Assembly (NCBI GenBank): GCA_963836075.1
Contig: CAWIIB010000009.1
Coordinates: forward strand, 3,330,442-3,394,441
From: an uncultured Acidobacteriota bacterium
GTDB lineage: Bacteria > Acidobacteriota > JAQAZP01
Reading direction: 5' to 3'
DNA length: 64,000 nt
Positions 31,950-37,453 of this stretch are shown here, piece by piece. The translations under genes were made by a program, and so were the position numbers. How positions within the stretch are numbered: the stretch's first letter is position 1; each line of letters begins with the position of its first letter. The notes beneath the pieces were generated by a model, which saw nothing but the letters and a program-made list of their open reading frames with translations, had not been told where the DNA came from and searched no databases.

Positions 31950-32765
31950 ATGAGCAATTCCGTTTCCCTGTGGTTTTCATCCGGGCAGTGGGAGAGCGAT
32001 CTGACCGCGGCCGGCTTTTCCCGTGGACGCGGCCAGCGCTGCTACTCGCTGGCCGGGGTGAGGTTCAGTATGGATGCCGACTGGCCGGTCCTGTGGTCCG
32101 GCTCCGGAGAGGAACCTGCTGATCCGCTGACCGGTCAGTTGGCCAGTCCGGGTCTCTGGAAGTGGGTGGTGGAGCAGGGGAAAGCACGGCAGGTTTTCGA
32201 GATTCCGCCGGCGGCGTTCAACGGAACGGGCCCTGTGGATGACAGCGGTGAAGAGTGTTCACTGTTCCGGTCGGTCATTGACTGGGCCATGGCCACCCGC
32301 CATGGCCGTTGCCCTGACGGCTGGTCCTCACCGCCCGAGGAGGAGGTGGCCGCGGCCATCCCGACGTCGGGTTTGACCCTCCAGCATGGAGCGTTTCTTT
32401 GCCAGGGCCGGCTGGAGCATGACCCGGGGCGGCTGGCCCTGAGCATCCCCATCGTCCACGAGATTCCGGCGGACCTGTCGCCGGAGCGTCATTCCTGGCT
32501 GCGCTGCCTGCTGGGAGATGCGCAAAACCGGTGGAGACTGGTCCGGGTGGGGTTTGACCAGGAACGGTCCGGAATGTCGGTCAGCGCGGGAATCGATCTC
32601 ACCGGCGTACCGCGGCCCATGCTGGAACCGCTGGTGAGCATCGCCCTGCCGGCCCTGCGCGGGGTGGCTGAATGGGTGGTCTGCTCAACGGTTTTTCTGA
32701 CCAGGTCTTCCAACGGGTGCCGGGCCCTGGCGGCAGGCGCCGTGCGGTCCGACACCCATCCATGA
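31950..32765 (+). CDS. hypothetical protein (operon member)
   Basis: 271-aa ORF, 5 nt after the E2 stop; no motif recognised. Confidence 0.4.
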   Translation: MSNSVSLWFSSGQWESDLTAAGFSRGRGQRCYSLAGVRFSMDADWPVLWSGSGEEPADPLTGQLASPGLWKWVVEQGKARQVFEIPPAAFNGTGPVDDSGEECSLFRSVIDWAMATRHGRCPDGWSSPPEEEVAAAIPTSGLTLQHGAFLCQGRLEHDPGRLALSIPIVHEIPADLSPERHSWLRCLLGDAQNRWRLVRVGFDQERSGMSVSAGIDLTGVPRPMLEPLVSIALPALRGVAEWVVCSTVFLTRSSNGCRALAAGAVRSDTHP

Positions 32766-32787
32766 CGGCTGAGAGGAGGTGAACGAG

Positions 32788-33081
32788 ATGAAGGAAATGA
32801 CTTCGGTAACCGGTGGAGGGTCCGGGGCTGTGGGGACACTGGACCTCCTGGCCACGGACATCACCAACACGATGCAGATTCAGGCCCTGGGCATCCAGTC
32901 CGGGGCGCCGGTGTCGGCGGTTGCGCGCTCACTGGCGGCCACCATGAATCTGCCATCCGGTGTGCCCTGGGCCATTCGGGATGATCGCACCAGCGCGTTT
33001 CTCGATGACGCCCGGACCATTGGCGAGCAGGTCACACCGGACAGCAGTGTGACGGTTGTCCCTCGGACGCACCTCGGCTGA
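32788..33081 (+). CDS. small protein ending in Gly; candidate ubiquitin-like modifier
   Basis: RBS GAGGAGG 8 nt before ATG 32788; ~98 aa; C-terminus ...VTVVPRTHLG-stop. Confidence 0.35.
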   Translation: MKEMTSVTGGGSGAVGTLDLLATDITNTMQIQALGIQSGAPVSAVARSLAATMNLPSGVPWAIRDDRTSAFLDDARTIGEQVTPDSSVTVVPRTHLG

Positions 33082-33186
33082 GGGGGCGGAGAGCCGCCCG
33101 GCGGGCACGGGGGATTGGTCCTTGTGCCTGCCGGGTGGGCTTGAAGCATTCGAGCCGCGTCGGCCAGGGGAGTGGGGAGGAGAACC

Positions 33187-36127: not shown

Positions 36128-36173
36128 TCCGGAATCGCCGTCCGGACGGGGAAAGATCGAGGAGGAGAGGCAG

Positions 36174-36509
36174 ATGGCCGACGAACGGAGGAGACCGAAA
36201 AGAGAGGAGACCGGGCCAGGTCCCGGTGGCCTCGGTGATGTGTTTGCCGGACCCGAAACGGGCGGGGCGGTAACGGTTTGCCATGGACCGTACAGCGAGG
36301 ATCTGCCGGTGGGCAACATGAGTGTGGGTGAGGTCCGGCGCCGGTTCTCGGACCGCCTGGACATCGACCCCCAGAGCCAGGCGGTGATCGACGGCAACGA
36401 GGTGGACGACAGCACCGTGCTGCGCGGCGGCCAACTGCTGGCCTTTATCCGGCAGGCTGGTGAAAAGGGCGGGAGGAGACGGTCCCACGGGGGAGGATCG
36501 CCATGTTGA
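36174..36509 (+). CDS. small beta-grasp-like protein with internal Gly-Gly and short C-terminal extension; candidate ubiquitin-like modifier precursor
   Basis: RBS GGAGGAG before ATG 36174; ...GGQLLAFIRQAGEKGG followed by RRRSHGGGSPC; ThiS/MoaD/ubiquitin-like size. Confidence 0.45.
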   Translation: MADERRRPKREETGPGPGGLGDVFAGPETGGAVTVCHGPYSEDLPVGNMSVGEVRRRFSDRLDIDPQSQAVIDGNEVDDSTVLRGGQLLAFIRQAGEKGGRRRSHGGGSPC

Positions 36510-37453
36510 GCAAGCTGGCCGCAAGGCGGGCGGAGGCGCGGTCCGCTTCGCGCCGGCAGACGGTGCACCAGGTGACCATCAAGGGTGAGCTGGTCTCCAC
36601 GGCCACCCCGGAGGGGCAGCCGGTCTGCATGAAACTGAAGGACCTGCTGGGGCTGATCTCGACCCACGGGGATCGATCGCTGGAGACCGGAGGCCTGTTG
36701 CCCGACGGGGTCAAGCTGGTCCGGTCCCGGGGGCCGGTGACCGTCTGGACCTACCAGCGGCCACCCCAGGTGCACAACCTGAGGTGGATCGCCGCCGACT
36801 CTCCCGTGCCGTTCGGAAAGGGCAGCACCTACCGCTCGGTGCGTATCGCGCTGCCCTACCTGGTGGTGCTGGCCGTGTTTATCACCGGGAGGAACAACCG
36901 TCTGCAGCTGTCGCAATACAACGAGTGCTTTTTCCGCAACGAACCTCTGAAGAGTGTTGAGGACCAGCTGTTCTACCCGGCACTGCTCAACTGTTCGAAG
37001 TTCAACCCGCAGGAGGGGCACCCGCTTTCCTGGATCTGCACCGCAAATATGGACCTCAGGCGTCTGGGCCGGCTCCCGGACGAGAACGAACGGATGCGGG
37101 GCAGTATGAATGCTCTGCTGCACTGCCTGCTGGAAACCGGTTACAACCATTCCAGCGAACACCACGAGGAGACAAGCTGGTTCACCGAGTCCGCCACGGT
37201 GGACCCGCGGGTCGCCACCGTCGAGAGGTGGGAGCAGGCCACCGCCAAAGACAGTCTTTTCGTCCTTGACGTCCCCTGGCTCAAAACCGGCAGGAGCCTG
37301 GGGCAGGTGATCGAAAGGATATTCGACAATGCCGGCAGTTCCCGCGGACGGCTGGCCACTTCCAATGACCTGATGCGGCTGATGGCCAACAACAGCGAGC
37401 GGCTGCCGGCGAAGGAAGAAGCGCAGGGGGTATTTATCGATGAACTGTTCTGA
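36503..37453 (+). CDS. hypothetical protein (operon member)
   Basis: 316-aa ORF overlapping previous stop by 7 nt; contains a hydrophobic segment (LPYLVVLAVFI); no motif recognised. Confidence 0.4.
   Translation: MLSKLAARRAEARSASRRQTVHQVTIKGELVSTATPEGQPVCMKLKDLLGLISTHGDRSLETGGLLPDGVKLVRSRGPVTVWTYQRPPQVHNLRWIAADSPVPFGKGSTYRSVRIALPYLVVLAVFITGRNNRLQLSQYNECFFRNEPLKSVEDQLFYPALLNCSKFNPQEGHPLSWICTANMDLRRLGRLPDENERMRGSMNALLHCLLETGYNHSSEHHEETSWFTESATVDPRVATVERWEQATAKDSLFVLDVPWLKTGRSLGQVIERIFDNAGSSRGRLATSNDLMRLMANNSERLPAKEEAQGVFIDELF

Follow-up and report, generated by a model that had tools for sequence, protein, structure and literature searches.

Which tasks fall to three proteins that sit among ubiquitin-like conjugation genes and match nothing in sequence libraries? 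This question is raised by a stretch of 64,000 nt from an uncultured Acidobacteriota bacterium (GenBank assembly GCA_963836075.1, contig CAWIIB010000009.1, positions 3,330,442 to 3,394,441 of the forward strand; the whole stretch is called the window hereafter). Three of its open reading frames (ORFs), here called A, B and C, are packed between genes for an E2, two ubiquitin-like proteins (Ubl1 and Ubl2) and a JAMM peptidase. A sequence-only reading of this DNA had found the three products to be without recognisable motifs and had proposed them as substrate adaptors, effectors or targets. Our analysis shows that all three are genuine genes and belong to the conserved core of an 11-gene cassette. 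We consider it reasonably probable that they act, in the roles proposed below, within two Ubl conjugation/deconjugation modules that flank a proteasomal-type AAA+ unfoldase. Rather than adaptors, effectors or targets, B and C are more likely the enzymes that these modules would otherwise lack, namely another deconjugating peptidase (B) and another E2 (C), because B carries a JAMM motif and C combines a predicted UBC/RWD-type fold with the operon position of an E2.

An 11-gene cassette conserved across phyla

All three ORFs of the sequence-only reading were recovered at identical coordinates. They belong to a cassette with the gene order RING–E1a–E2–A–Ubl1–B–AAA+–Ubl2–C–JAB–E1b, encoded entirely on the + strand:

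29291..29932, + strand: RING-finger protein, candidate E3, 213 aa
29944..31191, + strand: E1a, ThiF-family adenylating enzyme, 415 aa, Cys-rich C-terminal part
31268..31945, + strand: candidate E2 for Ubl1, 225 aa, assigned by motif
31950..32765, + strand: A, predicted peptide-binding adaptor, 271 aa, tandem TY-chaperone fold in the model
32779..33081, + strand: Ubl1, 97–100 aa, free C-terminal glycine
33187..34362, + strand: B, JAMM/MPN+-like protein, 391 aa from ATG, alternative GTG at 33172
34367..36127, + strand: AAA+ ATPase, 586–595 aa, Mpa/ARC/PAN-like architecture (coiled coil, OB, AAA)
36174..36509, + strand: Ubl2, 111–134 aa, AGEKG followed by a variable tail
36503..37453, + strand: C, candidate E2 for Ubl2, 316 aa, predicted divergent UBC/RWD fold, invariant cysteines
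37440..38348, + strand: JAB/JAMM peptidase, candidate Ubl2-processing enzyme, 302 aa
38345..39175, + strand: E1b, small ThiF-type adenylating enzyme, 276 aa

The E2 stop and the A start are separated by 4 nt, the A stop and the Ubl1 start by 13–22 nt, and the B stop and the AAA+ ATG by 4 nt; overlaps occur at Ubl2/C (7 nt), C/JAB (14 nt) and JAB/E1b (4 nt). The widest junctions (~46–100 nt) are E1a/E2, Ubl1/B and AAA+/Ubl2, and most others are gaps of 4–22 nt or overlaps of 4–14 nt. GGAGG-like sites lie 5′ of B and C. The gene order conserved across phyla bears out the earlier proposal that A, B and C are linked to their operon neighbours. The + frames have a coding-type composition, with a GC content of 0.77–0.83 at third codon positions (GC3) and of 0.45–0.55 at second positions (GC2). 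Synteny and codon-position GC reject the possibility that A, B and C are spurious ORFs of a high-GC genome. An antisense ORF of 1090 aa (34196–37468, − strand) spans B, AAA+, Ubl2 and C. We rejected it as a gene: GC at its first codon positions (0.79) exceeds GC3 (0.66), and its Gly/Pro/Arg/His-rich translation marks it as a high-GC artefact.

Word-indexed searches returned 6 relatives of A, 6 of B and 756 of C; C was used to fetch loci, the ORFs of which were searched with all cassette proteins. The 51 loci fetched comprise 48 related genomes, two duplicates and the contig of the window itself. Orthologues occur always in the same order, A in 40, B in 42 and C in 50 of the 51 loci, and the full 11-gene order is found in ~36 of the 48 related genomes, that is, in practically all loci that extend far enough upstream. 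All cassette hosts are metagenome-assembled genomes (MAGs), assigned to Planctomycetota, Verrucomicrobiota, delta-proteobacterial/Thermodesulfobacteriota lineages, Gemmatimonadota, Eiseniibacteriota and others. A second complete cassette, from a Pirellulales MAG (locus L002), encodes proteins with 35% (A) and 39% (B) identity to those of the window. The families are large: an exhaustive profile search yielded 755 representatives of B at 50% clustering, and C has more than 750. The comparison of gene neighbourhoods that had been suggested with the sequence-only reading, run here on related genomes, thus reveals a conserved order; no unrelated housekeeping family claims any of the three proteins, and their genes are neither interrupted nor missing in related genomes. 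Because gene order is conserved across phyla, we assign A, B and C to the cassette and not to housekeeping functions.

Of the flanking genes, only a divergent helix-turn-helix (HTH)-type gene upstream is conserved, and in the window the cassette is flanked by housekeeping or regulatory genes. A mobile origin was considered and rejected; relatives of C were not found in viral contigs or plasmids. Many Planctomycetota loci carry an extra gene of ~340 aa without Pfam match between AAA+ and Ubl2 (L002, 7445–8464, + strand; also L005, L007, L009, L018, L023, L025, L029, L035 and L046), which is absent from the window.

Searches of Pfam, NCBIfam, PADLOC and PDB sequences found no match above threshold for A, B or C, whether a single protein or a family profile served as query, and 6 of the 11 cassette proteins, these three among them, are invisible to Pfam, NCBIfam and PADLOC. 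In an all-against-all hhalign comparison of the 11 cassette families, only E1a and E1b are related (91%); the pairs B and JAB, C and E2, and A with any other family are not significant.

Proteins B and A in a proposed first Ubl module

The description of A, B and C as free of recognisable motifs holds for library searches and fails for B. The Cys/His string quoted in its support, GLCHGHNFYPCMLQGKDCRDCEKLETC, corresponds to residues 285–311 of B and contains the HxH of a JAMM motif, composed of E217, H288-x-H290 and S319-x-x-D322. These motif residues are invariant (i) in 41 orthologues and (ii) in 40 more divergent members with ~25–33% identity to window B, the two alignments being independent sets of ~40 sequences at 25–45% identity. 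The sequence contexts PPxE[ST]GxxLxG and GxxHGHxFxP resemble JAB signatures. Between HxH and SxxD lies a Cys-rich insert of ~20 residues, and conservation reaches at least 90% at C302, C305 and C311. B is composed of an N-terminal domain (~1–190) and a C-terminal JAMM/MPN+-like metallopeptidase domain (~195–350). Prok-JAB is the sole Pfam family that recurs among B members (1 of 41 and 5 of 40, best E=0.0013); in the member P0264, residues 208–298 align to profile positions 3–76, from the E motif through the HxH region. Based on these motifs, B is very likely a JAMM-type metallopeptidase and probably the isopeptidase for Ubl1.

Several results weigh against this assignment. All Prok-JAB matches are below the gathering score, and window B itself gives no JAB/MPN profile match, significant or otherwise. 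The best hhalign alignment of B with the cassette JAB sets HGH on HSH at 1% probability, the B profile finds no JAMM protein in PDB, and the HxH–SxxD spacing is 28 residues where 7 is canonical for JAMM. B could instead be another zinc protein, of a deaminase-like/JAB fold group or a Zn-ribbon, that serves as an effector, or a pseudo-enzyme that docks Ubl1 conjugates. The lack of a significant profile or PDB match and the odd spacing would fit this alternative, as would the three conserved cysteines, which could make a separate metal site, and the half of the protein (1–190) for which hhalign profile comparison detects no relative. The five JAMM positions, however, remain invariant while the remainder drifts to ~25% identity, and a pseudo-enzyme is expected to lose them; the only repeated Pfam family, moreover, aligns from the E motif through HxH. 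We therefore regard a non-isopeptidase function of B as rather unlikely. Two further candidates concerning B were dropped: a second, inactive MPN domain in residues 1–190 found no support in the profile comparison, and the 'Protein A' hits to the B profile in the library searches, which are not to be confused with cassette protein A, were discarded as summed weak matches to a repeat.

Protein A is always located between E2 and Ubl1. Its AlphaFold model, derived from a 7-sequence alignment, is confident (pLDDT 81.6, pTM 0.82) and shows two alpha-beta-alpha units with the TY-chaperone fold, a meander sheet with helices on its flanks. Fold relatives are class I chaperones of type III secretion systems (T3SS), namely VecA/CesT, SicP, SpcU, YscB, SigE, ExsC, ShcA, Spa15, SycN and InvB, and members of the YbjN family (AmyR, DR_1245 and Tll0839). 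The T3SS/YbjN superfamily has been described as peptide-binding chaperones (PMC9503650). In view of these fold relatives and of the peptide binding described for the superfamily, A is best read as a single-chain pseudo-dimer of the peptide-binding chaperone fold and, on the basis of its model, as a plausible adaptor. The T3SS class I chaperones (CesT, SicP, SpcU, SycN/YscB) and YbjN proteins are dimers of ~130-aa subunits, whereas A places two units in one chain of 271 aa.

At the level of sequence, A shares 8–17% identity with these chaperones. Pfam TY-Chap1 is touched by 1 of 41 family members (E=0.0055, below cut-off), A has no match in PDB sequences, and a significant sequence-profile match to TY-chaperones was not reached. 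No type III secretion genes lie near A, and no type III secretion family was found among the scanned proteins of the window or the related loci. The fold, furthermore, is silent on what A binds, which counts against the assignment of a specific adaptor role. In L002, the A orthologue (2754–3697, + strand) is split, its C-terminal helix region lying in a separate overlapping ORF (3452–3697); the split is caused by a frameshift or an assembly error.

The remaining proteins of module 1 are assigned as follows. The RING protein has subthreshold Prok-RING_1 and zf-RING_2 matches, and at least 90% of 32 orthologues keep its eight ligands C145, C148, C161, C164, H169, C183, C190 and C193. E1a matches Pfam ThiF (E=5e-24) and the PADLOC E1-E2 models. 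The product of 31268..31945 has no match in Pfam, NCBIfam, PADLOC or PDB profiles; we label it a candidate E2 by its HPN-Cys motif, which reads FHPNI...QVLCLG in the window and WHANV..Q.LCLG in the family consensus (as a pattern, WH[AP]N[VI]...Q.LCLG), with C147 invariant. Ubl1 has no library match either, and in 37 of 39 orthologues ...P[KR]xHLG immediately precedes the stop codon.

From these assignments, module 1 would comprise a RING E3, E1a, an HPN-Cys E2, A, Ubl1 and B, with the ...HLG terminus of Ubl1 ready-made. A may bind an extended peptide, either of a substrate or of a partner such as the N-terminal tail of Ubl1, and present it to the E2/RING pair. B would remove or recycle Ubl1, possibly at the AAA+ ring encoded next downstream, in the manner of Rpn11 on the Rpt ring.

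Protein C and a proposed second Ubl module

C occupies the slot of the E2 in Ubl-E2-JAB-E1 operons. It is strongly conserved, with ~50% identity across phyla (>48 orthologues); every orthologue keeps C142 and C179, and almost every one C164 and H221. Further conserved motifs are NECFF, YPALLNCS (158–165), PLSWIC (174–179) and SSEHHE. The model of C (pLDDT 78) consists of a helix, a beta-meander, a long loop with C164 and C179, and further helices. In P0051, P0100 and P0106 and in loci L013, L014, L017 and L038, Ubl2 and C are fused into a single polypeptide, in P0106 via an inserted linker. Ubl2 carries an AGEKG motif conserved in 41 orthologues, followed by 0–30 residues or by the fusion to C. 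These fusions imply proteolytic release of Ubl2 after AGEKG. We consider C a likely E2-like protein of the UBC/RWD fold, for which the context is the stronger argument than the fold; that C is also catalytically active as an E2 is somewhat less likely.

This assignment has to contend with the following observations. The resemblance of the model to the UBC/RWD fold is weak, and the structure-based search suggested with the sequence-only reading failed to place C, as Foldseek of the model against PDB returned only noise. Confidence in the model is lowest near C164 and near residues 216–225. The HPN motif is absent, and none of C142, C164 and C179 could be placed as the equivalent of the E2 cysteine. 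E2 profiles (UQ_con, Prok-E2_A-E, PRTRC_B and BilB-type) in Pfam, NCBIfam and PADLOC give no match to C at E<=1, and hhalign of C with the cassette E2 yields 1%. C might thus be a non-catalytic, RWD/UEV-like scaffold that binds Ubl2, or a built-in first target of Ubl2, with Ubl2 being handled by E1b alone or by the E2 of module 1. However, two invariant and two near-invariant Cys/His positions in more than 48 orthologues would be unexpected for a pure scaffold, and module 2 would then lack an E2, although an E1, a JAB and a Ubl of its own are present in Bil operon order. We judge a scaffold or target role improbable.

The JAB peptidase is above the cut-off for Pfam Prok-JAB and retains the catalytic residues E94, H151-S-H153, S161 and D164; its match to NCBIfam PRTRC_A (E=4e-12) is below cut-off. 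E1b matches Pfam ThiF (E=6e-16), while its NCBIfam matches (ThiF/MoeB/PRTRC_ThiF) are all below cut-off. Membership in the PRTRC system was rejected, since JAB and E1b fall far short of the PRTRC cut-offs and PRTRC_B does not match C. The closest plasmid relatives of JAB (~27% identity) are found on Lysinibacillus plasmid pBsph (L051, NC_010381.1, 41699–46411). These Bacillus/Lysinibacillus relatives adjoin ThiF and genes for DNA polymerase III gamma/tau and delta′, a different JAB-E1 context.

Module 2 would thus consist of Ubl2, C, JAB and E1b in Bil operon order. The JAB peptidase would cut Ubl2 after AGEKG, E1b would adenylate Ubl2, and C would carry it as the E2. Its gene content is complete only if C is accepted as an E2. 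With B as a JAMM peptidase and C as an E2, the cassette would therefore encode two complete Ubl modules, each with E1, E2, Ubl and JAMM.

The proposal of substrate adaptor, effector or Ubl target roles for A, B and C, outside the conjugation machinery, can now be weighed as a whole. The peptide-binding chaperone fold of A agrees with an adaptor, and for none of the three does a known enzyme family score above threshold. The same proposal does not suit B, which keeps a full catalytic JAMM motif, or C, with its predicted E2-type fold, E2 position and Ubl fusion. Moreover, no typical effector domain (nuclease, non-JAMM protease, pore-former or NADase) was found for A, B or C in Pfam or PADLOC, and defence effectors usually differ between operons, whereas no complete cassette lacks any of these three proteins. 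For the three proteins together, we consider such roles very unlikely.

The AAA+ ATPase, known systems and surroundings

The protein encoded between the two modules matches Pfam AAA and, below cut-off, Prot_ATP_ID_OB_C, the proteasomal OB domain. NCBIfam pup_AAA aligns over residues 62–559 (E=8e-25), at 87 bits compared to an equivalog cut-off of 505. It thus resembles Mpa/ARC of the Pup system in a full-length alignment to that profile and in the proteasomal type of its OB domain. The JAMM gene B lies directly upstream of AAA+, which recalls, as a likeness of genes alone, how Rpn11 sits on the Rpt ring.

Three observations weigh against the joint action of both modules with a proteasomal-type unfoldase. 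(i) In contrast to Mpa/ARC–Pup, the AAA+ C-termini of 40 orthologues lack a 20S-docking tail of the HbYX/GQYL type. (ii) The cassette encodes no protease core, and no Pup, PafA/Dop or 20S genes lie within it. (iii) Locus L022 (1–5400) retains A-Ubl1-B-AAA-Ubl2-C-JAB-E1b, while RING, E1a and E2 were not detected in 5.3 kb upstream; the enzymes of module 1 are therefore not always next to A, Ubl1 and B.

Bacterial ubiquitination-like operons (CBASS Cap2/Cap3, Bil and Bub) have recently been shown to conjugate proteins, mostly in phage defence. The order Ubl2-C-JAB-E1b matches that of Bil operons, BilA(Ubl)-BilB(E2)-BilC(JAB)-BilD(E1), and both share a conserved Ubl C-terminal glycine. In type I Bub operons (BubAB/BubCD), BubAB is a Ubl-E2 fusion cleaved by a JAB domain, which the Ubl2–C fusions of some lineages mirror. 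The cassette differs from both systems in several respects. C, Ubl2, JAB and E1b match no PADLOC or NCBIfam defence model, and only generic ThiF/E1-E2 matches occur in the cassette. Bil E1 is composed of IAD-AAD-CYS, whereas E1b is a single ThiF domain of 276 aa. JAB and E1 are separate genes, and the cassette proteins scanned contain no match to DUF6527/BubE, a serine protease. Module 2, finally, never occurs alone: AAA+ is joined to it wherever upstream DNA suffices, and so is the RING module except in L022.

Module 1 shares with the Caldiarchaeum-type E1/E2/RING-E3/Ub/Rpn11 operon (PMC5654768) a Gly-ending Ubl, an E1, an HPN-Cys E2, a small RING protein and a JAMM protein, with B in the slot of Rpn11. 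It differs in that A is added and in that its JAMM protein, B, has diverged much further and bears both an extra N-terminal domain and the Cys-rich insert. Library models recognise neither its E2 nor its Ubl, and the module is coupled to AAA+ and a second Ubl module. The likeness to known systems is one of fold, motif and operon logic; at the sequence level, the cassette could be assigned to none of them. In the literature, RING-containing bacterial Ubl operons are called rare and uncharacterised, and a different RING/Ubl-E2 system has been described for FtsH ternary systems. The literature searched holds no account of this cassette; a prior description in Burroughs et al. 2011, on prokaryotic RING systems, is possible.

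Biological roles that we infer as options are regulated unfolding or degradation, a stress response and phage defence. In a bolder version of the two-module arrangement, the cassette would be a self-contained 'ubiquitin-unfoldase', in which substrates are tagged with Ubl1, an Mpa/Rpt-like AAA+ ring unfolds them and B strips the tag at this ring. A would then be a substrate receptor of chaperone fold that aids tagging with Ubl1 by the RING E3, E2 and E1, and module 2 would turn module 1 on or off, much as NEDD8 controls cullin-RING ligases. We regard this version as doubtful. If true, it would represent an Rpn11-Rpt-like arrangement outside archaea and eukaryotes and a previously undescribed bacterial counterpart of ubiquitin-proteasome regulatory logic, made from three families (A, B and C) that domain databases lack at present and that have been seen so far only in uncultured lineages.

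In at least five phyla of uncultured bacteria, the cassette joins a proteasomal-type unfoldase to two Ubl modules, one of them RING-containing and eukaryote-like. A, B and C define three new families that are candidates for domain and defence-system libraries, and their assignments turn three unnamed proteins into concrete biochemical experiments. If the JAMM–AAA+ pairing is functional, it bears directly on the origin of tag-dependent unfolding machines.

Upstream of the cassette, two features are relevant to its expression:

27343..28611, − strand: candidate cassette regulator with N-terminal Cro/C1-type HTH, 422 aa, weak HTH_26 match below the Pfam cut-off
28612..29290, no strand: AT-richer intergenic region, 680 bp, GC 0.535 in 28001–30000

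In 3 other genomes, a relative of the 422-aa regulator gene precedes the cassette, and elsewhere other HTH-type genes, one with a SorC-like sugar-binding domain, fill the same divergent position. Four of the five promoter-like sites found in 27000–40500, which are consensus matches only, fall into the 680-bp intergenic region (28742–28972, + strand; 28873–29225, − strand). The divergent HTH genes and the promoter-like sites in the AT-richer region suggest that cassette expression may be regulated.

Just upstream of the regulator gene (25972–27050, − strand), two small ORFs of 171 and 156 aa encode Gly-rich proteins (GGGSG-type) with signal-peptide-like N-termini. About 6 kb downstream of the cassette (44959–48448, − strand), two adjacent ORFs have the appearance of a tricorn-type protease, with PD40/DPPIV beta-propellers, Tricorn C1, PDZ and Peptidase_S41 domains; their nearness to an operon encoding an unfoldase is possibly coincidental.

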